64,000 nucleotides of DNA from Corallococcus coralloides (GTDB lineage: Bacteria; Myxococcota; Myxococcia; Myxococcales; Myxococcaceae), in NCBI RefSeq assembly GCF_044792175.1, contig NZ_CP172866.1; one strand, given 5' to 3'. This document shows positions 47,840 through 56,787 of the stretch, in pieces. Position 1 is the first letter of the stretch. The number at the start of each line of letters is the position of its first letter. Below the pieces are notes generated by a model. That model was given only the letters and a program-made list of their open reading frames with translations. It was not told the origin of the DNA and made no database searches. The position numbers and the translations under genes were made by a program.

Positions 47840-48814
47840 TCAGGCCTGGGCGATGGTGGGCAGGTTGGCGCGGGCCTTCTCGATGTCGCCCTCGTATTTG
47901 AGGACGAGGTTGAGCGTGGCGGCGACGACGTCCGCGCTGAGCGCTTCCGCGTTGAGCAGCGCCAGGCTCTGCGCCCAGTCCAGCGTCTCGCTGATGGACG
48001 GGGCCTTCTTCAAGTCCAGCGCGCGGATGGCGGCGATGGCCTCCACCACCTGCTCGGCCAGCACCTGGGGGAGCTCCGGGAGGCGCGCCCGGACGATTCG
48101 CAGCTCGCGCTCGCGGTCCGGGAAGTCGATGTGCAGGTGCAGGCAGCGGCGCTTGAGCGCGTCCGACAGCTCGCGGGCGTTGTTGCTGGTGAGGATGACG
48201 CGCGGGATGTGCTTCGCCCGGATGGTGCCCAGCTCCGGCACCGTGACGGCGTTGTCAGACAGGACCTCCAGCAGGAAGGCCTCGAACTCCGGATCCGCCT
48301 TGTCGATTTCGTCCACCAGCAGCAGGGCGGGCGTGTCCGAGAGCTGGGCCTGGAGGATGGGGCGGGGGAGCAGGAAGCGTTCGGAGAAGAACACCGCGTC
48401 CCCGGACGCGAGCCGGTCCGCGGCCTCCGCCAGCGTGGACGTGCCCTGGGTCAGCTCGCCAATCTTGTCCTTGAGCAACTGCGTGTAGAGCAGTTGCTTG
48501 GCGTACTCCCACTCGTAGAGGGCCTTGGCCTCGTCCAGGCCCTCGTAGCACTGGAGCCGGAGGAAGGTCCGGTCCAGCGCCTGGGCCAGGGCCTTGGCCA
48601 GCTCCGTCTTGCCCACGCCGGCCGGGCCCTCCACCAGGATGGGCTTGCCCATCCGGTCCGCCAGGAACACGGCGGTGGCGATTTCAGGGGACGACAGGTA
48701 GCCCACCGCCTCCAGGCGACGCGCCGCGTCCTCCACGCTGGTGAACGAGCGGATCTCCGAGGTCAGTTGAGGGGGGCTCACGCGCGTCAACTTAACCGAC
48801 GGTTCCGTCCCCAC
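47840..48814 (-). CDS. MoxR-family AAA+ ATPase
   Basis: ILVEGPAGVGKTELAKALA Walker A, LLLVDEIDKADPE Walker B, and the MoxR sensor region. Confidence 0.8.
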   Translation of the reverse strand: MGTEPSVKLTRVSPPQLTSEIRSFTSVEDAARRLEAVGYLSSPEIATAVFLADRMGKPILVEGPAGVGKTELAKALAQALDRTFLRLQCYEGLDEAKALYEWEYAKQLLYTQLLKDKIGELTQGTSTLAEAADRLASGDAVFFSERFLLPRPILQAQLSDTPALLLVDEIDKADPEFEAFLLEVLSDNAVTVPELGTIRAKHIPRVILTSNNARELSDALKRRCLHLHIDFPDRERELRIVRARLPELPQVLAEQVVEAIAAIRALDLKKAPSISETLDWAQSLALLNAEALSADVVAATLNLVLKYEGDIEKARANLPTIAQA

Positions 48815-48971
48815 TGCGGCAAAAATGCCAGGGTTGTGGGGGCGCCGTCCGCACTCTTGAGGGCCGTGGGAGCCGTAACCCTGCGGAATCAGGGTGCGTA
48901 ATTATTTTCGCACCCTGGGCACGCACCGTGCATCCAAGTGGGCGTATCTCAGGACGACGAGGTCGCGGGTC

Positions 48972-49199
48972 ATGTGGGCGTGGCTGAAGCTGGCGATGGC
49001 GGTGCTGGTGGTGGTGATGCCGGGGGGCTTCCCCCTCGTGCTGGCGTACATCGCGACGCGGACGTTGTTGGAGCGCTGGCGGGTGGCGCAGGCGCAGGCC
49101 CGGGAAGAGGGCCGTCCGGTGTCAGTGGTGCGGGACGTGGTGGGCGCGCTGCACTTCCGGGACCTCATCCGTGAGGCGAAGGCGGCCACGGCGCTGTAA
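48972..49199 (+). CDS. small membrane protein (hypothetical)
   Basis: MWAWLKLAMAVLVVVMPGGFPLVLAYIA TM helix followed by a charged tail. Weak call. Confidence 0.3.
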   Translation: MWAWLKLAMAVLVVVMPGGFPLVLAYIATRTLLERWRVAQAQAREEGRPVSVVRDVVGALHFRDLIREAKAATAL

Positions 49200-49290
49200 C
49201 CGCTCGGCGCGGGGACGGTCTTGAGATGGACGAAGGGCCCGGCACTCCAGGGAGTGCGCGGGCCCTTGTCGTTTCCAGCGGAGGGGAAGG

Positions 49291-52200
49291 CTACTTGTCG
49301 AGCTCGTCGACGAGCGCCGTCCAGTCGTCCTCACCGGCTTCGGGGGCGGTGGGCAACTGCATCACCATGGTGCGCTCCGGGGCCTCCTCGTCCACGGGGA
49401 CGGGGGTGGGCGCCGCCTTCTTCGCGGCCGGCTTTGCGGCGGCCTTGGCCGGAGGCTTGGCGGCTGCCGGGATGACCGGGTTGGCCTGGACGGTGGCGGC
49501 CAGGTGCTCGTCCTCGGGGGCCTTGGCGCCGGCCTTCGCGGCGGGGGCGGCGGCCGCGGCGGGGGCCTTGGTCTTGTAGCGGGCCAGCTCCAGCTCGGCG
49601 ACCTTGAGCGCCTTGCTCTTCTCCTGGACGGACGTCTGGAGGCGGGCGACCTCCTGGGCCTTGATGGCCTCGCGGCGCTCGAGCTCCGCCTTCTGCTTGG
49701 CGTTGAGGTCCTCCAGCTCCTTGGCCTGACGGGCCTCCAGGTCCTTGCGCTCCTTCTGCGCCGTGGCGAGCCTGGCGGCCGCCTCGTTGGCCTTGGTCTC
49801 CGCCGCGGCGACGCGGGCGTTGAGGTCCTTCTCCGCGCGGGCGCGGGTGCTCTGGGCGTTCTCCAGCGCCAGCTCCAGGTCCTGGGCCTTCTTGGTGCGG
49901 GCCTGCAACTGGGCCTGGGCGTCCTTGAGCTTCGCCTCCGTGTCGGCGGCGAACTTCTGGGCCTCCTGGGCGAGCTGGGCGATGCGCTGCTCGGCCTTGG
50001 CGAGCTTCGCGGCCAGGTCGTCCGACTGCTTCTTCGCCTCGGCGGCGGCGGCCTGCGCCTGCTGGGCCTGCTGTTGGGCCTGGGCCTGGGCCTGCTGGAG
50101 CTGTCCGGCCAGCCCGTCGCGCTCGCTGGTGAGCTTCTTCTGCTGGTTCGCGGCCTGCTGGAGCTGTCCGTCGCGGTCCGCGATGGCCTTGCGCGCGCCG
50201 TCCAGCTCGCCGGAGACGTTGGAGAGCTGCTGGTGGAGCGCGTCCGCCTGCTTCTTCGCCTCGGCGGCCTGGTGCTCCAACTGGCCTTCCAGTTGCTTCA
50301 CCTGCTCCGTGCGGGTGGAGACCTCGCGGTTGAGCACCTCCGCCTGACGCATCTTCTCCTGCGTCACGTGCGTGAGCTTGCGGAGCGTGTCCGACAGCTC
50401 CTTGCCCTTGGTGTCGACCTCGTTCTGGAGGAGCTCCTCACGGCGCTGCGACTCGTGGGTGAGCGTCTGGAGGCGGTCCTCCAGGTGGTGCCGCGCGTCC
50501 TCCGTCTGCGCGAGCGTGGAGGACAGTTGCGTGACTTCCGACACGCGCGTGCCCAGCTCGTGCTTGGTGACGATGAGCTGCTCGGCCAGGTCCTCGCCGT
50601 TGGCCTGGGCCTCGGTGAGCTGGCGCGTGAGCTCCGCCTGGGCGCTGGCGGCGGCCTCGCGGGACTGCGCGTGGGCCTGCTCCTCGCGGGCGAGCGCGTC
50701 CTGGGTGCTGGCGAGCTGGCCCTGCGTGTCGGCCAACTGCCGCGAGGTGGCGTTCAGCTCCGCGAACAGGTTGTCGCGCTCGCCGGTGAGGGCGTTGATG
50801 CGCGCGGTGGTCTCCTCCGCGAGCGCCGCGTGGGCGGTGCGCTCCGCGTCGTAGAGCCCCTGCGTCTCGGACAGGTCCGCGCGCAACTGGCCAATCTGGC
50901 CGGTGAGGTCCTGCTCCAGCGCGTCCTTCGCCGTGTTGAGCGCCGCCAGCTCCGCGATGCGCGCGTCGCGCTCCTCGGTGGTGCGGGCGAGGAGGCCGTT
51001 GGTCTCCTGGAGGATGTCGCGCGTCTCGTTGAGCTCCGCGTCCAACTCGTCGCGGTGCGAGGTGACCTTCGCCAGGTCGGCGCGCGTCGACTCCAGGGTC
51101 TCCTGGGTCTGCGTCAGCGTCTGGCTGGTGGCCTCCAGCTCGCCGCGCGTCTCCGCGAGCGTGCCCTCGGTGCTGGAGAGCGTCGCCTGCGTCTCGGAGA
51201 GCGTGGCCTCCGTGCGCGCCAGCGTGTCCTGCGTCTGCGCGAGGGTGGATTCGGTGGTGGCCAGCGTCTGGCTGGTGGCCTCCAGCTCGCCCTGGGTGGA
51301 CGCGAGCGTCCCTTCCGTCTGCGCGAGCCTGGCCTGCGTGTCCGTCAGCGTCTGGCTGGTGGCCTCCAGCTCGCCGCGCGTCTCCGCGAGCGTGCCCTCC
51401 GTGCTGGTGAGCGTGGCCTGCGTGTCGGAGAGGCTCTGGCTGGTGGCCTCCAGCTCACCGCGCGTGGTGGAGAGCGTCTCCTCCGTCTGCGCGAGCTTGG
51501 ACTGGGTGTCCGCCAGGGTCTGGCTGGTGGCCTCCAGCTCGCCGCGCGTCTCCGCGAGCGTGCCCTCGGTGCTGGAGAGCGTCGCCTGCGTCTCGGAGAG
51601 CGTGGCCTCCGTGCGCGCCAGCGTGTCCTGCGTCTGGGCGAGCGTGGACTCGGTGGTGGCCAGCGTCTGGCTGGTGGCCTCCAGCTCGCCGCGCGTGGTG
51701 GAGAGCGTCTCCTCCGTCTGCGCCAGGCGCGTCTGCGTCTCGGAGAGCTGCTGGCTGGTGGCCTCCAGCTCGCCGCGCGTCTCGGAGAGGGTGGCCTCCG
51801 TGTTGGAGAGCGTGCCCTGCGTCTCGGAGAGCTGCTGGCTCGTCGCCTCCAGCTCGCCGCGCGTCTCCGCGAGCGTGGCCTCCGTGCCGGAGAGCGTGTT
51901 CTGCGTCTCGGAGAGCTGCTGGCTCGTGGCCTCCAGGTTGCCGGTCAGCTCGGCGATGCGGGCGTCGCGGTCGGAGACGTCGGTCTGCAGGCCCTCGATG
52001 GTGCCGTCGCGCTGGGTGACGGTGTCCTCGAGCGAGGCCACGCGCGCGGAGAGCTGCTCGCCCTGGCGCTGGGACGCGTCGAGCTGCTCGGTGAGCGCTT
52101 GAATCTGGCCGTTGAGGTCCGCCTCCAGGGCGTCCTTCGCCGCGCGCAGGTCCTCCAACTGGCTGGTGAGGTCCTGCTCCAGCGCGTCCTTGGCCTGCTG

Positions 52201-53895
52201 CAGCGCCTGGAGCTCCGCGGTCAGCTCGTTCTCGCGGTCCTCCAGGTGCGTCTTGACGGCCTCGACTTCGCCTTCCAGCTCACCGATGCGCTCGCGGTGC
52301 TGCTGGATGGTGGCGTTGAGCTCCGCCTCGCTGTTCTCGTTGCGGGCGATGGTCTCCTGCAGCTCGCGGTCGAGCGCGGAGATCTTCGCGTCCCGCTCCT
52401 CCAGGCGCTGCGTGAGGTCCGCCTCCAGGGCGTCCTTGTCCAGCCGGAGCTGGTCGCGCTCGCCGGTGACGCGCGCGATGTCGGACTCCAGGTCCGCCAC
52501 CTGCTGCGTGAGGCGCTGCTCCAGGGCGGCGCGCTCGGCGTTGAGGCGCTCAATCTCCGCGTCCGAGCGGCTGGCGTGCTCCTCCGCCGTGGTGGCCCGG
52601 GCCTCCAGGCCGCGCACGGTGGCGTCGCGCTCCTGCTCCGTCTGGGTCAGCCGCTCCTGGAGGGCCTGCAGCTCGCCGTCCAGCTCGGCGTAGCGCTGGT
52701 CGCGCTCGCTGACGGTGCGGGCCAGCTCGGACTCGAACTGATCGCCGCGCTCGCGCAACTGGAGGATGTCCGCCTCGTTGGCGCGGACGGTGTCCTGGAG
52801 CTTCTGCTCCTTGACCTCGAACTCCAGCGTGACGACGCCGAGGTGCTTCTCCAGCTTGTCGAACTCGTTGCGCCAGCTCTCCAGGTCCGCGCCGCGCCGG
52901 GCCAGCTCCTCGTCGCGGAGGTTGACCTCCTTGCGCAGGACGTTGATGTCCTTCTCCTTGGAGGCGACGACCTCGATGAGGTCCTTCTCCGAGGAGAACT
53001 TCTGGAGGAGCAGGTCGTCGACGGTGGCGCCGTGCTCGCGCTCCTTCTGGACGATGGACTGCTGCGCGTCGTTGAAGCGGCGCAGCAGGTCGTCCACCTG
53101 CATCTTCAGGCCCTGCAGCTCCACGTCCTTCTCGTGGAGGCGGTCCTCGACGGAGAGCAGCTCGCGCTCGCGGACGCTCCAGATCTCCGACAGGCGCGCG
53201 AGCTGGGCTTCGCGCGTCTTCAGCTCGTCCCGGAGGATTTGAATCTTGCCCTCGGGCGTGCCCATCAGCTCGCGGCGCGGGGGCGGGCGCTTGAGCTGAC
53301 GCGACTCCGCCAGCAGCTCCGCCTTGCGGTCCGCGATGGACGAGAAGGCCCGGTCCATGAAGGCCTTGTCCTCGTCCGTCATGGCGCTGCGGCGCTCGCG
53401 CTTGGGCAGCTTGGGCGGGGCGCCCGTGCGCACGCCGGGCATGGGCGGCGGGGCTTCACGCGGCTGGCCGGAGAGCGCGGCGTCCAGGTCCGCGTCGGAC
53501 TCGTCGGAGCCGGGCGGCACGATGCCCGCGCTCATGGAGGCCAGCTCGCCCATCTCGAACGGGATGACGAGGTAGCCGTCCGCGGCGGCCGGCGTCTCAC
53601 GGTGTTTGTTCAGACCCTCCACACCGGAGTCGGAGGAGAGCAGGAGGACCTTCAGGTTCTGGCCCCACTTGCCCTTCTTGATCTGCCCACAGAGGGCGAA
53701 GCCGGACTGGTCCGGCAGCTCCGCGCGCACGACGACGAGGTCGGGTCGGCGCTTCTCCAGCTCCCGCTGCGCGTCTGACGCAGTGGTGGCCATGGCCGTG
53801 TTGTAGCCCGCGCTCTTGAGCACGGAGGCCATGCTGAGTGCGAAGTCGTTCTGGCTTTCGACGATGAGGACGCGACGCTCCATGAAGCCCTTCAC
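49291..53895 (-). CDS. response-regulator receiver domain fused to a very long coiled-coil (AglZ/FrzS-like architecture)
   Basis: N-terminal CheY-like receiver (VLIVESQNDFALSMASVLKSAGY...) followed by about 1300 aa of heptad-repeat coiled coil and an Ala/Pro/Lys-rich tail; 1534 aa. Confidence 0.8.
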   Translation of the reverse strand: MKGFMERRVLIVESQNDFALSMASVLKSAGYNTAMATTASDAQRELEKRRPDLVVVRAELPDQSGFALCGQIKKGKWGQNLKVLLLSSDSGVEGLNKHRETPAAADGYLVIPFEMGELASMSAGIVPPGSDESDADLDAALSGQPREAPPPMPGVRTGAPPKLPKRERRSAMTDEDKAFMDRAFSSIADRKAELLAESRQLKRPPPRRELMGTPEGKIQILRDELKTREAQLARLSEIWSVRERELLSVEDRLHEKDVELQGLKMQVDDLLRRFNDAQQSIVQKEREHGATVDDLLLQKFSSEKDLIEVVASKEKDINVLRKEVNLRDEELARRGADLESWRNEFDKLEKHLGVVTLEFEVKEQKLQDTVRANEADILQLRERGDQFESELARTVSERDQRYAELDGELQALQERLTQTEQERDATVRGLEARATTAEEHASRSDAEIERLNAERAALEQRLTQQVADLESDIARVTGERDQLRLDKDALEADLTQRLEERDAKISALDRELQETIARNENSEAELNATIQQHRERIGELEGEVEAVKTHLEDRENELTAELQALQQAKDALEQDLTSQLEDLRAAKDALEADLNGQIQALTEQLDASQRQGEQLSARVASLEDTVTQRDGTIEGLQTDVSDRDARIAELTGNLEATSQQLSETQNTLSGTEATLAETRGELEATSQQLSETQGTLSNTEATLSETRGELEATSQQLSETQTRLAQTEETLSTTRGELEATSQTLATTESTLAQTQDTLARTEATLSETQATLSSTEGTLAETRGELEATSQTLADTQSKLAQTEETLSTTRGELEATSQSLSDTQATLTSTEGTLAETRGELEATSQTLTDTQARLAQTEGTLASTQGELEATSQTLATTESTLAQTQDTLARTEATLSETQATLSSTEGTLAETRGELEATSQTLTQTQETLESTRADLAKVTSHRDELDAELNETRDILQETNGLLARTTEERDARIAELAALNTAKDALEQDLTGQIGQLRADLSETQGLYDAERTAHAALAEETTARINALTGERDNLFAELNATSRQLADTQGQLASTQDALAREEQAHAQSREAAASAQAELTRQLTEAQANGEDLAEQLIVTKHELGTRVSEVTQLSSTLAQTEDARHHLEDRLQTLTHESQRREELLQNEVDTKGKELSDTLRKLTHVTQEKMRQAEVLNREVSTRTEQVKQLEGQLEHQAAEAKKQADALHQQLSNVSGELDGARKAIADRDGQLQQAANQQKKLTSERDGLAGQLQQAQAQAQQQAQQAQAAAAEAKKQSDDLAAKLAKAEQRIAQLAQEAQKFAADTEAKLKDAQAQLQARTKKAQDLELALENAQSTRARAEKDLNARVAAAETKANEAAARLATAQKERKDLEARQAKELEDLNAKQKAELERREAIKAQEVARLQTSVQEKSKALKVAELELARYKTKAPAAAAAPAAKAGAKAPEDEHLAATVQANPVIPAAAKPPAKAAAKPAAKKAAPTPVPVDEEAPERTMVMQLPTAPEAGEDDWTALVDELDK
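51090..51945 (-). repeat. intragenic tandem repeats (84-bp / 28-aa units RGELEATSQxLxxTQxxLxxTExTLxxT) with a 180-bp exact segment duplicated about 400 bp apart
   Basis: About ten 28-aa units. A 60-aa segment (RGELEATSQTLATTESTLAQTQDTLARTEATLSETQATLSSTEGTLAETRGELEATSQTL) occurs twice verbatim at nt 51513-51693 and 51114-51294. Confidence 0.8.
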
Positions 53896-53982
53896 CCAGC
53901 AAAAAGTGCAGTGAAAACCGCCACATCCTATCGGGCGGGCGCAAGGCTTGGGAAGTTTCCGAGCAGCGCTCGGTCGGCTGCC

Positions 53983-56787
53983 TCACGAGTTCTTGCCGCG
54001 AACCGCTCCCTGGCCGACAGGCGGGACCGACCCGGGGGACTCGCCTGCTTCCGGATCCCGCCCGGGGAAGTTGGTGGGCGGGGTGTGCCGGGCGAAGCGG
54101 GCGCCCTCGGGGGGACAGTACCCGTGCGCGAGCTGGGCGAACCACGGGTTGAGGGTGGAGTCGGGGGGCGCGGGCGGGGGCCCCGGGTCCTCGGCGTCCG
54201 CGGACTCCACGTCGAGCGAGTCCGCGTCCTGGACCTCGTCGGCGGCGATCTCCTCCGCCTCTTCCAGCGCCGCGCTGGCGGTGGAGGGCGTGTTCCCGGC
54301 GTCGTCGTCCAGGGACAGGGCCTCGTCGGCGGCGATCTCCTCCGGCTCATCGTCCGGGTGCGCGGCCGAGGGCTTCAGCACGGGGGGCGTGGGGATCAGC
54401 CGGGGCGGCGGTCCCTGGCGCGGAACGGGCGGCGGCGCGGCGGCGCGGGGCGGTAGCTGCGGCGGGCGGTCCGCGTCGGAGACGGAGCCACCGCGGATGG
54501 GCGGCTTGTCGGACTCCGTGAGCACGGGGGGGCGGGCGGCGGGCCGGCCTGGATCCGCGGCGAGGCCGCCACGGATGGGCGGTTTGTCCGCGTCGGCCAT
54601 GGGAGAGGGAGTGGGGAAGAGACGCGGAGGTTCAGAGGGGACCGGATCCGCTGGCCGCTGCGCACGGCCGGCGCCCGTGCTTCGCGCCCCGTTCTGCAGC
54701 GAGCGCATGGGCACGATGGGCGTGGGCGCGGGAGGCTCCTCTTCCTCACGCATGACCCCGGTCCGGCGCACGACCGGGGTGGGGGCCCGCTCCTCGTCCT
54801 CCGAGAGGGAGGGGGGACGGCGCACGATGGGCGTGGGCGCGGGAGGCTCTTCCTCGGAGGCCGGCCTGCGCACGATGGGCGTGGGCGCGGGAGGTTCTTC
54901 CTCGGAGGCGGGCCTGCGCACGACGGGCGTGGGCGCGGGAGGCTCTTCCTCGGAGGGCGGCCTGCGCACGACGGGGGTGGGGGCCGGCGTGCTCGTGTCG
55001 TCCTCCGCCACCGGCCGGCGCACCACGGCCGTCGCTCCGGCGGAGACATCCTCGGAGTCCCCGGCGTCGTCCCCACCGGCATCCTTCAAGCCGAGCGCCT
55101 TCACCAGGGGGCTCGTCACCATCTCCGTGGGGGGAGACGGCTCCGCGCCACGGCCTCCCAGTGGTTCCGGCTCCTCGGCCTTCGCGGGGGCGGAGGGCAG
55201 CGCCGTCTTCGCGGTGTCGTCGGTCGTCCTGGAGGCGGAGGCGGCCCCGGGCTCCGGCGGGGGCGTGGCTTCCCGGCTCGCGGGGGCCGGATCGGACTTG
55301 CCTGACTCGCGCAGCGGCAGGCCCATGACCATGGGCACTTCGTCCGGCCGCATGTCCGGCTCGGTCTTGACGAGCCGGGTGTCCATCCCGTCGTCCAGGG
55401 CCATGCCCATCACCACGGGCGGGTCCTCCGCCGGGACCTCCTTCGCGGGCGGCGGGGCGGCTTCGTCGGCCCCGGCCTGAGGCGCCGGCTTCGAGGGCGG
55501 CCTGGGCGCCGCGGGCTGGGACGCCTCCGGCATGCCCAGGCTCGCGAGCCGGTTCGTGGGCGTGCCCGTCATCGTGACGTCGGGCGGCTCGCTGGCGGCT
55601 TCGACCGGGACGTGGCCGCGCTTCTCCAGCAGCGAGTCATACAGGTCCAGCAACTGGCCCCGGATGAGGCCCGCGTCCAGCACCTTCTCCGCGAACGCGC
55701 GCCCGGCCTTGCCCAGCGCCACGCGGCGGGGCACGTCGCGCGCCAGGTCCAGGATGCGCTCGGAGAGGGCGCGGCTGTCGCCCGGGGGGAAGAAGACGGC
55801 CGCGTCCTTTGGAAGCAGCTCGCGGGTGACGGGCAGGTCCGCTGCGATGACCGGCCGGCCGGCGGCCAGGTACTCGGAGACCTTGGCCAGCGGTCCGCCC
55901 TGGAGCCGGTTGCGCTCCGAGTCGTCCAGCGGCAGCACGCCCACGTCCGCCAGCGCCAGCACCTTGACCAGGTCGTCGTGCGCGACGGGCGGCTGGAAGT
56001 CGACCTTCTCCTTGATGCCCAGGTCGTTGACCAGGTCCTCCAGGTGGGGCTTCCAGTCCGGATGGTGCGCGCCCACCAGCGTCAGGCGCACGTCCACCTG
56101 CTGGGACGCGAGCGCGGTGGCGCGCAGGAGGGTGGGCAGGCCCTGCCAGCCCACGTGGCTGCCCAGGTACATCATGCGCAGGGGCGAGCCGTCCGGGGCG
56201 CCGAGCACCTCCGGGTCGTACGGCTTCAGGTCCACGGGCGCGCGGATCGTGCGCAGTTGGTCCTCCGCCGCGCCCAGCCCCTGGATGTACGCGCGCGTCG
56301 TCTGCGAGCCGGTGACGACGAGGTCCGCGTTCATCAGGCAGAACAGCTCCTGGCGGCGGATCTTCGACAGGAAGCGGCGGTCCCCGTCCGTCTGCGGGTG
56401 GGTGTAGCGCAGCTCCTGGGAGGGGAAGGTCTGCGCCTCATAGATGAGGCGGTAGCCGTAGTCCGCCTTCAGCTCGCAGAGCGCGTAGCCCCCGAAGGGG
56501 TCCGTGAAGTGGGCGAGCGCGTAGTCCTCGCTCTCCAACTGGCGGCGCACGGCCCGCTCAAAGGACTGGATGCGCGACGCCAGGTCCCCGGAGCCTACCG
56601 GGACGCGGAGCAGCCGGGCGCCCTGGTACTTCTCGATATGGGAGTGGTCGGGCGTCTTCGCCGACAGCACCACCACGGAGAAGCGATCAGGCAACGCCTT
56701 CAGATACTCGGTCAGTCGGCGTGAGGAGCCAGACGGGCCGGGGATGACGTCGAAGCTGCACAGGAGAAGTCTGGGCAGGTCACTCAA
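53983..56787 (-). CDS. GT4-family glycosyltransferase with about 540-aa Pro-rich low-complexity C-terminal extension
   Basis: N-terminal about 390 aa GT-B/GT4 with the EX7E-type region GGPLAKVSEYLAAGRPVIAA. The C-terminus is disordered and Pro/Glu/Ala-rich with repeats. Confidence 0.8.
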   Translation of the reverse strand: MSDLPRLLLCSFDVIPGPSGSSRRLTEYLKALPDRFSVVVLSAKTPDHSHIEKYQGARLLRVPVGSGDLASRIQSFERAVRRQLESEDYALAHFTDPFGGYALCELKADYGYRLIYEAQTFPSQELRYTHPQTDGDRRFLSKIRRQELFCLMNADLVVTGSQTTRAYIQGLGAAEDQLRTIRAPVDLKPYDPEVLGAPDGSPLRMMYLGSHVGWQGLPTLLRATALASQQVDVRLTLVGAHHPDWKPHLEDLVNDLGIKEKVDFQPPVAHDDLVKVLALADVGVLPLDDSERNRLQGGPLAKVSEYLAAGRPVIAADLPVTRELLPKDAAVFFPPGDSRALSERILDLARDVPRRVALGKAGRAFAEKVLDAGLIRGQLLDLYDSLLEKRGHVPVEAASEPPDVTMTGTPTNRLASLGMPEASQPAAPRPPSKPAPQAGADEAAPPPAKEVPAEDPPVVMGMALDDGMDTRLVKTEPDMRPDEVPMVMGLPLRESGKSDPAPASREATPPPEPGAASASRTTDDTAKTALPSAPAKAEEPEPLGGRGAEPSPPTEMVTSPLVKALGLKDAGGDDAGDSEDVSAGATAVVRRPVAEDDTSTPAPTPVVRRPPSEEEPPAPTPVVRRPASEEEPPAPTPIVRRPASEEEPPAPTPIVRRPPSLSEDEERAPTPVVRRTGVMREEEEPPAPTPIVPMRSLQNGARSTGAGRAQRPADPVPSEPPRLFPTPSPMADADKPPIRGGLAADPGRPAARPPVLTESDKPPIRGGSVSDADRPPQLPPRAAAPPPVPRQGPPPRLIPTPPVLKPSAAHPDDEPEEIAADEALSLDDDAGNTPSTASAALEEAEEIAADEVQDADSLDVESADAEDPGPPPAPPDSTLNPWFAQLAHGYCPPEGARFARHTPPTNFPGRDPEAGESPGSVPPVGQGAVRGKNS
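54700..55030 (-). repeat. tandem repeats encoding EEPPAPTP(V/I)VRRP(A/P)SEE, about 5 copies (about 57-bp unit)
   Basis: Read from the translated GT4 tail. Two DKPPIRGG repeats lie further downstream. Confidence 0.7.

Follow-up and report, generated by a model that had tools for sequence, protein, structure and literature searches.

A long gene on the minus strand of a 64,000-nucleotide stretch of Corallococcus coralloides DNA (the window) encodes a receiver-like domain followed by a coiled coil of more than 1000 residues, and it raises the question of which protein this is and what the long array of heptad repeats in its middle signifies. M. xanthus AglZ is required for A-motility, is located in fixed focal-adhesion clusters and forms filaments in vitro, and the Agl-Glt machinery of this species is known as 'bacterial focal adhesions'. 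Judged from domain architecture, relatedness and gene order, the gene is very probably that of the C. coralloides AglZ, a coiled-coil protein that serves as cytoplasmic scaffold for the Agl-Glt machinery of gliding (A-) motility. It is an ordinary ortholog of a known protein, to which modest new detail can be added.

The ORF list contains a single long minus-strand ORF at 49291..53895, for which a length of 1534 aa had been given in a sequence-only reading of the window. In the alignment, 40/40 orthologs have the N-terminus MERRV or MDRR, which corresponds to MERRVLIVES encoded from the ATG at 53883, the start seen across orthologs, and this ATG is conserved among orthologous spacers together with an AAGGG ribosome-binding site, while the GTG at 53895 is not. 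The protein therefore comprises 1530 aa, and on the strength of these comparisons the true start is ATG 53883 and GTG 53895 is an extension of the ORF only. The protein can be divided as follows.

49291..53883, minus strand: aglZ coding sequence, 1530 aa plus the stop codon TAG (49291-49293), with the ATG start at 53883-53881
53888-53892, minus strand: ribosome-binding site AAGGG, from the spacer alignment
53521..53883, minus strand: pseudo-receiver domain, aa 1-121, from Pfam PF00072, the FrzS/CheY/PhoB alignment and the AF2 model
53257..53520, minus strand: linker with proline-rich sequence, aa 122-209, from disorder prediction, invariant residues and identity to M. xanthus
51937..53256, minus strand: N-terminal part of the rod, aa 210-649, short heptad segments parted by +4 register shifts (stutters)
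51076..51936, minus strand: Leu-a/Thr-d heptad block, aa 650-936, 41 uninterrupted heptads [T/E]-L-x-x-T-x-x in two 133-aa (399-bp) units
49564..51075, minus strand: C-terminal part of the rod, aa 937-1440, with regular +4 stutters again in the register analysis
49294..49563, minus strand: Ala/Pro/Lys-rich tail, aa 1441-1530, from the translation, ending in DDWTALVDELDK

A 1424-aa antisense ORF (49504..53778, plus strand) was rejected, since GC-rich genes usually have an antisense frame free of stops, and the evidence from homology, domains and synonymous sites lies entirely on the minus strand. An exact look-up in the protein collection found no entry identical to AglZ, whether translated from the ATG or from the GTG.

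The N-terminus matches the Pfam Response_reg family (PF00072) with 46.5 bits against a cut-off of 30.2 (E=4.7e-12), which bears out the receiver that had been proposed there. The AF2 model of the domain is a (beta-alpha)5 fold with pLDDT >90, and the best match of the domain among solved structures is the FrzS receiver 2gkg (E=2.3e-13); superposed on FrzS receiver structures the model gives a target TM-score of 0.89-0.92 and an rmsd of 1.5 Å. Like canonical CheY-like response regulators the domain has this fold and a Response_reg match above the gathering score, but unlike them it has no equivalent of Asp57, of the second acidic-pocket Asp or of Lys109. In the alignment with CheY, PhoB and FrzS, D57 of CheY is replaced by R53, D12/D13 by E9/S10, T87 by S83 and K109 by I107, and R53 is invariant in 27 homologs. 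With R53, S10 and I107 at key positions the domain does not pass as a canonical phospho-accepting regulator: phosphorylation at the canonical Asp is impossible with Arg53 in that position, and since the second pocket Asp and the Lys109 equivalent are missing along with Asp57 the domain cannot act as a phospho-switch. H94 and Y104 align with H92 and Y102 of FrzS, a pair of residues adopted as a criterion from PMC1974792, and both are invariant among homologs. By its residues the domain is a FrzS-like pseudo-receiver in which the phospho-Asp is replaced by Arg53, in agreement with the finding that every AglZ and FrzS is devoid of a functional phosphorylation site (PMC4546325). The receiver is also fully conserved within the genus, with 0 amino-acid differences among 11 Corallococcus orthologs, so that the sequence-only reading is not undermined by a poorly conserved domain.

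The linker is predicted to be disordered (pLDDT <50 at aa 126-131 and 139-156 in AF2) and contains a proline-rich core, REAPPPMPGVRTGAPPKLPKRERRS, at about aa 137-169 (53377-53475). Its residues P145, P156, P157, P160, R164 and R165 are invariant among homologs and it is 79% identical to M. xanthus, where AglZ residues 123-213 bind the GYF domain of GltJ (PMC11135422). The rod that follows comprises ~1230 aa with a heptad register running from aa 204 to about 1440; AF2 predicts an unbroken helix from aa 210, with helix at aa 210-329 and 561-999. About 20 regular stutters punctuate the rod, and the Leu-a/Thr-d block at aa 650-936 is its sole long stutter-free stretch. The translation thus confirms both the very long helical heptad region and the Ala/Pro/Lys-rich tail that had been described behind the receiver. 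The tail is poorly conserved relative to M. xanthus (41% identity), and the C-terminal motif DDWTALVDELDK (49294-49329) is common to most orthologs, among them the Myxococcus orthologs of full length; the contig from M. xanthus stops short of it.

In the block the pattern holds in 41/41 heptads, Leu occupying position a and Thr position d. TRF reports periods of 21, 42, 84, 147, 168, 231 and 399 bp, the highest score being 1249, far above chance, and places the tandem array, first drawn at 51090-51945, at about 51076-51936. The array had been described as 84-bp units, and this is indeed the commonest spacing, but at its lowest level the array is built from heptads of 7 aa (21 bp). Successive copies of the motif ELEATSQ lie 28, 28, 28, 49, 28, 28, 28 and 49 aa apart, and the top-level unit is therefore 133 aa, or 399 bp, present in two copies. 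Each of these contains the same peptide.

51514..51690, minus strand: verbatim 59-aa peptide, copy 1, aa 732-790, with the exact DNA tract 51518-51636
51115..51291, minus strand: verbatim 59-aa peptide, copy 2, aa 865-923, with the exact DNA tract 51119-51237

The two 177-nt coding copies differ at 4 positions, all synonymous, and exact direct repetition extends over at most 119 bp (51119-51237 = 51518-51636). Of the 180-bp verbatim repeat that had been noted about 400 bp apart, the spacing (399 bp) and the identity of the peptide stand, while the DNA is exact over 119 bp only. Positions a and d show 0 nonsynonymous differences among the orthologs of 11 Corallococcus species, against synonymous codon differences of 0.18-0.22, a pattern which indicates that the core Leu and Thr residues are under strict purifying selection. 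Modelled alone by AF2, the block is all helix (pLDDT about 85) and the single chain folds as an antiparallel hairpin. Such hairpins are common in single-chain AF2 models of lone coiled-coil chains and are uninformative on oligomer state; the modelled hairpin is not taken as evidence for a real assembly.

The relatives of the protein were found by different routes. A full-length search for protein homologs returned only sequences of <=55% identity, mostly metagenomic, with no Corallococcus or Myxococcus entry, and the orthologs from these two genera came from a scan of genome contigs. At the DNA level aglZ shares 88-96% identity with its orthologs from other Corallococcus species, and the protein shares 74% identity over 1350 aa with a M. 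xanthus protein (AM003) of 151.8 kDa over 1379 aa, whose contig ends before the stop codon; this agrees with the 153 kDa published for M. xanthus AglZ (PMC11135422). This 4.3-kb contig is unannotated, and equating its gene with MXAN_2991, the locus of M. xanthus AglZ (Yang et al. 2004, J Bacteriol 186:6168, as cited in PMC11135422), rests on size (~153 kDa) and architecture. The gene order DUF4912, GT4, aglZ, AAA ATPase, aminotransferase IV, AAA recurs at about 60 loci, and one homolog (P0018) bears the NCBI name aglZ. The host belongs to the Cystobacterineae/Myxococcaceae, and AglZ and the Agl-Glt machinery are restricted to Cystobacterineae (PMC4546325). The features described for AglZ in the literature are all present, namely the atypical receiver with its His and Tyr equivalents, the Pro-rich sequence and a coiled coil of >1000 residues. 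Like M. xanthus AglZ, the protein combines a pseudo-receiver that has lost the phospho-Asp with a Pro-rich sequence, a rod of >1000 residues and a Leu-a/Thr-d block with the unit TLAETRG ELEATSQ, and the two genes agree in their neighbours and in the conserved spacer upstream. They differ in length (1530 aa here, about 1395 aa there) and in the higher-order repeat, which consists of 133-aa units here and has a 98-aa spacing in M. xanthus AglZ.

The same architecture could in principle belong to a regulator of the FrzS type, which would act in type IV pilus (S-) motility. The paralogs FrzS and AglZ have identical domain order (PMC4546325), the nearest solved structure is the FrzS receiver domain, and M. 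xanthus FrzS (MXAN_4149; receiver structures 2GKG and 2I6F) likewise has a receiver followed by a coiled coil, no phospho-acceptor (Ala53 in FrzS, Arg53 here) and the His92/Tyr102 equivalents. However, FrzS serves type IV pili and not the Agl-Glt machinery, its genomic context is different, and its coiled coil of 235 residues in a protein of ~550 aa is about five times shorter than the rod of ~1230 aa described here; the M. xanthus AglZ coiled coil has 1076 residues (PMC4546325). Comparison with both M. xanthus proteins, proposed along with the original AglZ/FrzS-type assignment, shows the receiver to be 82% identical to that of the AglZ-sized ortholog and only about 26-31% identical to that of FrzS, and in every genus it is the long-form gene with which the locus shares synteny. 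Assignment to FrzS is accordingly highly improbable, and the original assignment was right and is sharpened to AglZ by rod length, receiver identity and synteny. It is scarcely credible that the product is a coiled-coil protein of a generic structural or SMC-like kind, whose receiver has decayed and which has no role in motility. Such a protein would account for the partial matches to SMC, Rad50, crescentin and tropomyosin models, but the crescentin-rod and SMC-type matches on the rod are weak and all fall under their cut-offs (Rod_CreS at 36.6 bits against 100, SMC_prok_B at 113 against 567), they extend over coiled coil and nothing else, and an ATPase head is absent, so that neither a crescentin/intermediate-filament rod nor an SMC/Rad50 protein is recognised. 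A receiver that shows no amino-acid differences in the genus and 82% identity to M. xanthus has, moreover, not decayed by drift.

A further reading takes the AglZ identity for granted and concerns the block itself, which would be a recent, unstable duplication or an assembly artefact that makes rod length strain-variable. The 119-bp exact tract and the 59-aa verbatim peptide 399 bp apart are repeats of the kind that can recombine, and heptad number ranges from 23-33 among Myxococcus species. Yet the same 399-bp duplication lies at the identical place in 11/11 Corallococcus orthologs, with copies 82-91% identical, and is therefore old, as also follows from the two copies in C. exercitus, which differ at 24/173 sites. 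There are 0 indels within the block among 11 Corallococcus genomes, which include two C. exercitus strains and one complete genome, and the genome studied here was assembled into a 9.66-Mb contig. An unstable or artefactual block is thus very unlikely, and for the genus Corallococcus this reading is already largely refuted. Of the properties that had been proposed for the block, recent intragenic duplication is not supported, nor is strain-variable length within the genus; length does differ between Myxococcus species and between genera. The near-identity of the two copies here is better described as a local gene-conversion patch. Over 173 nt the copies within one genome differ at 3 sites here, at 8 and 1 in two of the other Corallococcus orthologs compared (L003 and L006, respectively) and at 12-24 in other species, and in these three lineages the two copies are each other's nearest neighbours, with 13-20 differences to orthologous copies. 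This pattern argues that gene conversion has locally homogenised the 399-bp units in three lineages, and in C. coralloides recently, over about 170 bp.

In the family at large, orthologs possess rather than lack the block. It contains 41 heptads here, 16 more than the 25 of M. xanthus AglZ, and about 5 to 46 across the family; pairwise alignment with M. xanthus opens a 136-aa gap at the block, about one 133-aa unit, and in every non-Corallococcus ortholog measured the anchors flanking the block are a whole number of heptads apart. By these comparisons the internal repeats are a conserved family trait that is length-stable within Corallococcus, and the block arose by tandem amplification of heptad units. 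L-x-x-T heptad arrays are found in 141 cluster representatives at E<=1e-10, many of them unrelated proteins, and the block is therefore not a family-specific signature. Proteins with such arrays, for example cyanobacterial HmpF-type coiled-coil motility proteins, share the long Leu-a/Thr-d heptad runs (NCBIfam HmpF matches partially, with 46 bits against a cut-off of 200) but differ outside the repeat, where they have an apextrin C-terminal domain, dynamin, laminin-G or OTU; the likeness is one of repeat type, not of descent.

The regions flanking the gene contain further elements.

53925..53954, minus strand: promoter-like element in the GT4-aglZ spacer, TTCCCA, 18 nt, TAGGAT, aligned in 17 spacers
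53901-53920, minus strand: conserved block CGGTTTTCACTGCACTTTTT downstream of the promoter-like element, from the spacer alignment
53983..56787, minus strand: GT4 glycosyltransferase gene, the upstream neighbour, from Pfam and NCBIfam, with the GT4 domain at aa 19-387
49229..49270, minus strand: GC-rich hairpin 21 nt past the stop codon, centroid fold -33.1 kcal/mol, minimum free energy -35.5, z = -3.9

When 17 orthologous spacers, drawn from at least 8 genera, are aligned, TAGGATG and the block that follows it show little or no variation. A consensus promoter scan of the spacer found nothing, the conserved element scoring 8/12, slightly under threshold. A sigma-54 promoter was rejected by eye, as the GG-GC distance is 11 nt here and 8 nt in Archangium whereas 10 is required. 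Since the promoter-like element is conserved across genera, aglZ probably has its own promoter; co-transcription with GT4 is possible because there is only a weak terminator-like site between the genes. The gap to the GT4 stop codon (53983-53985), previously given as 88 bp, measures 99 nt if the ATG is taken as the start and 87 nt if the GTG is. The GT4 gene lies directly upstream of aglZ in about 60 loci and encodes a protein with a Pro-rich tail of about 540 aa that is identical to WP_404371893.1 of C. coralloides. The literature searched contained no mention of MXAN_2990 or MXAN_2992, nor of the GT4 with Pro-rich tail or the promoter-like/5'UTR element. The GC-rich hairpin is likely to mark the transcript end; a small convergent ORF faces it. 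Rfam gave no match for the aglZ gene, the GT4-aglZ spacer or the 3' hairpin.

By analogy with M. xanthus AglZ, the pseudo-receiver and linker would act as a protein-interaction module in which the Pro-rich sequence docks the GltJ GYF domain and the same region contacts MglA-GTP. Binding of the GYF domain by the Pro-rich sequence and of MglA-GTP by the N-terminal region is described for M. xanthus AglZ only (PMC11135422). In C. coralloides these contacts would, as in M. xanthus, recruit the motor both to the leading cell pole and to the clusters at focal adhesions, and the rod, roughly 180 nm long if fully extended, would oligomerise into a filament or platform. The block, we suggest, may set rod length or oligomeric state. 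According to the rules drawn from GCN4 core variants, a core with Leu at a and a beta-branched residue at d is unfavourable to a simple parallel dimer. It is conceivable, if doubtful, that the block forms a functional module of AglZ in its own right instead of serving as filler within the coiled coil, because its core is strictly selected, its length varies between genera, its flanking anchors keep whole-heptad distances in the non-Corallococcus orthologs measured and it is stutter-free; such a module could determine how far the cytoplasmic platform reaches, or an oligomeric state that differs from a simple dimer. As a still more speculative idea, the block could offer a multivalent Thr platform that is phosphorylated and read by the FHA domain of GltG, or that is glycosylated by the GT4 enzyme encoded immediately upstream.

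The identification adds little in itself, AglZ being a textbook gliding component with orthologs already catalogued across the Cystobacterineae. The GT4 with its Pro-rich tail and the promoter-like/5'UTR element, both invariably linked to aglZ, are further by-products, and the block provides a clean example of concerted evolution that proceeds inside a coiled-coil gene while copy number stays the same. The residue-level map of the rod may help work on the cytoplasmic platform of the Agl-Glt machinery, the architecture of which is still described as unknown, and the natural variants in block length, from about 5 to 46 heptads, could be used to ask whether rod length or core chemistry matters.

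The aglZ ortholog of Corallococcus coralloides lies in a window of approximately 70% GC, within a single ORF of 1534 codons on the minus strand which runs from a GTG at 53895 to a TAG at 49291-49293. Across 17 aligned upstream regions of orthologs, conservation covers the ATG at 53883 and an AAGGG ribosome-binding site located 4 nt before it; it does not extend to the GTG, which is the product of mechanical ORF extension only. All 40 extracted orthologs, full or partial, start with MERRV or MDRR. The AglZ protein therefore has 1530 aa, with a mass of about 168 kDa; the sequence-only reading of a 1534-aa gene recognised the single long ORF correctly and is amended in its length. A stop-free antisense ORF of 1424 aa over aglZ (49504-53778, plus strand) is an artefact of the GC-rich repetitive coding sequence and no gene.

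Features of the aglZ locus (amino acid positions in ATG numbering)
53983-56787, minus strand: GT4 gene, glycosyltransferase aa 19-387, followed by a tail of some 540 aa rich in Pro, Glu and Ala
53884-53982, minus strand: spacer that holds the element TTCCCA or TTTCCA, 18 nt, TAGGAT, then CGGTTTTCACTGCACTTTTT and AAGGG, from a cross-genus alignment
49291-53883, minus strand: aglZ
aglZ, aa 5-116: receiver domain, Pfam match above the gathering score
aglZ, aa 1441-1518: Ala/Pro/Lys-rich tail
49229-49270: GC-rich hairpin without a U-tract, 21 nt after the aglZ stop codon

The gene codes for an ordinary ortholog of the known protein AglZ, and its earlier identification as an AglZ/FrzS-type gliding-motility scaffold was right. 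A scan with one genome per species returned 231 relatives, headed by Corallococcus orthologs of 88-96% identity which are all 1526-1532 aa long, and continuing with Myxococcus, Pyxidicoccus, Archangium, Cystobacter, Hyalangium and many MAGs. The ortholog of M. xanthus AM003 shares 74% identity over 1350 aligned residues, and the 1379 aa available before its contig ends amount to 151.8 kDa, which fits the published AglZ mass of 153 kDa (PMC11135422). The gene order, consisting of a DUF4912 protein on the opposite strand, GT4, aglZ, an AAA ATPase, an aminotransferase of class IV and an AAA protein, recurs in approximately 60 loci, and one metagenomic homolog carries the NCBI name aglZ. The SMC, Rad50, crescentin and tropomyosin models match the coiled coil only, far under their cut-offs. 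Two records seem to carry wrong labels: 'Comamonas sp. KCTC 72670' has a Myxococcus-type aglZ locus, and 'Corallococcus terminator BB12-2' encodes an AglZ of 1411 aa of the Myxococcus/Pyxidicoccus type, of which the best segment is only 66% identical to the window protein.

The nearest solved sequence to the AglZ receiver is that of FrzS (E=2.3e-13), and in an AF2 model built from 27 sequences the receiver (pLDDT >90) superimposes onto FrzS receiver structures with an rmsd of 1.5 Å. Alignment with CheY, PhoB and FrzS places Arg53 at the phospho-acceptor position, Glu9/Ser10 at the acidic pair, and Ser83 and Ile107 at the equivalents of Thr87 and Lys109. All 27 homologs compared keep Arg53, His94 and Tyr104, the latter two being the counterparts of FrzS His92 and Tyr102, whose retention in AglZ was noted with the FrzS structure (PMC1974792). 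Residues 126-131 and 139-156 are predicted to be disordered and lie inside a Pro-rich sequence (...REAPPPMPGVRTGAPPKLPKRERRS...) which is 79% identical to M. xanthus AglZ region 123-213, the region that binds the GYF domain of GltJ (PMC11135422). From aa 210 onward the AF2 model is a continuous single helix, and the final 12 residues of the protein, DDWTALVDELDK, are conserved across the family.

The spacer of 99 nt between the GT4 stop codon (53983-53985) and the aglZ ATG is conserved across genera, from Corallococcus to Cystobacter and Hyalangium. Its element is promoter-like and, together with a conserved 5' leader, can be read as a promoter of the sigma-70 type. At 8/12 consensus positions it falls just under the promoter-scan threshold; the CGGTTTTCACTGCACTTTTT block, which is invariant in the alignment, may be a 5' leader or an operator. 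The gap contains no more than a weak terminator-like site, and transcription may thus read through from GT4 into aglZ. The 3' hairpin (centroid -33.1 kcal/mol, minimum free energy -35.5, z = -3.9) is shared with a convergent ORF of 101 aa (48894-49199, plus strand) whose N-terminus is hydrophobic and which matches no family; Rfam gave no match anywhere in 48700-54100.

The GT4 protein is identical to WP_404371893.1 (C. coralloides), and in the approximately 60 loci, from Myxococcaceae and Archangiaceae, its gene directly precedes aglZ in the same orientation; no mention of this neighbour was found in the literature searched. Its tail includes a 48-bp tandem repeat in 3.4 copies (54820-54981, peptide PAPTP[VI]VRRP[AP]SEEEP), while the C-terminal end is conserved. 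Its 90%-identity cluster has members with lengths of 905, 934 and 966 aa; the length of GT4, unlike that of aglZ, therefore varies between Corallococcus strains. Seven short-read Corallococcus contigs stop 200-800 bp upstream of aglZ, in the 3' part of GT4, where Pro-rich coding sequence of 76% GC forms a recurrent assembly break point. The downstream AAA ATPase (47840-48814, minus strand), syntenic with aglZ in most loci, scores 348 bits against the NCBIfam MadB_ATPase cut-off of 475 and also matches the GvpN and AAA_5 models.

Along the rod, which spans aa 204 to approximately 1440, the register of the heptads, assigned with our own simple a/d core-propensity scan and not a published predictor, shifts about 20 times at intervals of roughly 25-60 aa, almost always by +4 (stutters), a pattern conserved in the orthologs of M. 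xanthus, Archangium, Cystobacter and Hyalangium. The exception is a constant register over the 389 residues of aa 587-975, which hold the sole long stutter-free segment of the rod (49564-53256, minus strand), the Thr block. Here 41 heptads in a row (aa 650-936) have Leu in position a and Thr in position d; when the frame is moved by one heptad, the counts are 41/41 for Leu at a, 40/41 for Thr at d and 25/41 for Thr at g. The block is predicted to be helical (AF2, pLDDT ~85). ELEATSQ occurs at aa 677, 705, 733, 782, 810, 838, 866 and 915, at spacings of 28, 28, 49, 28, 28, 28 and 49 aa. A closely related motif, NLEATSQ, stands a further 28 aa ahead of the first of these (aa 649), and the block thus resolves into two higher-order units of 133 aa. 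In Tandem Repeats Finder this DNA (about 51100-51980) shows periods of 21, 42, 84, 147, 168, 231 and 399 bp nested in one another, with scores to 1249, and the tandem repeat block described from sequence is therefore real.

Judged from the orthologs, the Thr block is shared across the family. It comprises 41 heptads in Corallococcus (45/46 if Ser is also accepted at d), 25 in M. xanthus, with the same TLAETRG ELEATSQ unit, 23-33 in other Myxococcus species, 30-36 in Archangium and Vitiosangium, 13 in Hyalangium and 5-20 in distant MAGs. Two conserved anchors flank the block; their distance in residues is divisible by 7 in 9/9 non-Corallococcus orthologs measured (252-434 aa) and is 472 aa (67x7+3) in all 11 Corallococcus, a net register offset (aa 533-1005 of the window's AglZ, 50869-52285). 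Among these 11 orthologs, positions a and d show no nonsynonymous differences against 0.18-0.22 synonymous codon differences, so the Leu/Thr core is under purifying selection; variation is free at positions b, c and f. L-x-x-T heptad arrays are no AglZ-specific feature: the block as query against 1.84 billion representatives found 141 proteins at E<=1e-10 with unrelated domains (apextrin C-terminal domain, dynamin, laminin-G, OTU, even a lectican, whose match is compositional). No discussion of the AglZ Thr block was found in the literature searched, and heptad repeats receive only a passing mention in a paper on AglZ.

The block had been taken to contain a verbatim 180-bp repeat, the mark of a recent intragenic duplication. 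Its peptide is exact over 59 aa (aa 732-790 = 865-923), but the two 177-nt copies encoding it have 4 differences, all synonymous, and the DNA is exact for only 119 bp (51119-51237 = 51518-51636, offset 399 bp). In 11/11 Corallococcus orthologs this 399-bp self-similarity recurs at one and the same place, with 82-91% identity over 300 bp, and their multiple alignment has zero gaps throughout the block. The duplication is therefore older than the genus and its copy number has not changed since, and neither its recent origin nor the proposed repeat instability with strain-variable rod length is borne out. Within a tract of 173 nt, the sites that distinguish the two copies number 24 in C. exercitus, 8 in C. 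llansteffanensis, 3 in the window and 1 in C. carmarthensis. In the latter three species the two copies are mutual nearest neighbours, differ from orthologous copies elsewhere at 13-20 sites on average, and have species-specific variants in common; read from the alignment, this similarity bears the mark of recent gene conversion that took place independently, and not of recent duplication.

By homology with M. xanthus, AglZ would be the part of the cytoplasmic platform through which MglA-GTP and GltJ are coupled to the Agl-Glt motor. The pseudo-receiver would serve localisation and interaction, with no phospho-signalling, the GYF domain of GltJ would dock on the Pro-rich sequence, and the rod would oligomerise. 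The block is 136 aa longer in the window protein than in M. xanthus AglZ by pairwise alignment, which corresponds to about 20 nm at 0.148 nm per residue. In the GCN4 variants of Harbury et al. from 1993, a core that combines Leu in position a with beta-branched residues in position d reportedly favours tetramers over dimers. This analogy suggests that the Thr block may specify a higher-order or antiparallel assembly of AglZ, or may simply tune the length of the rod.
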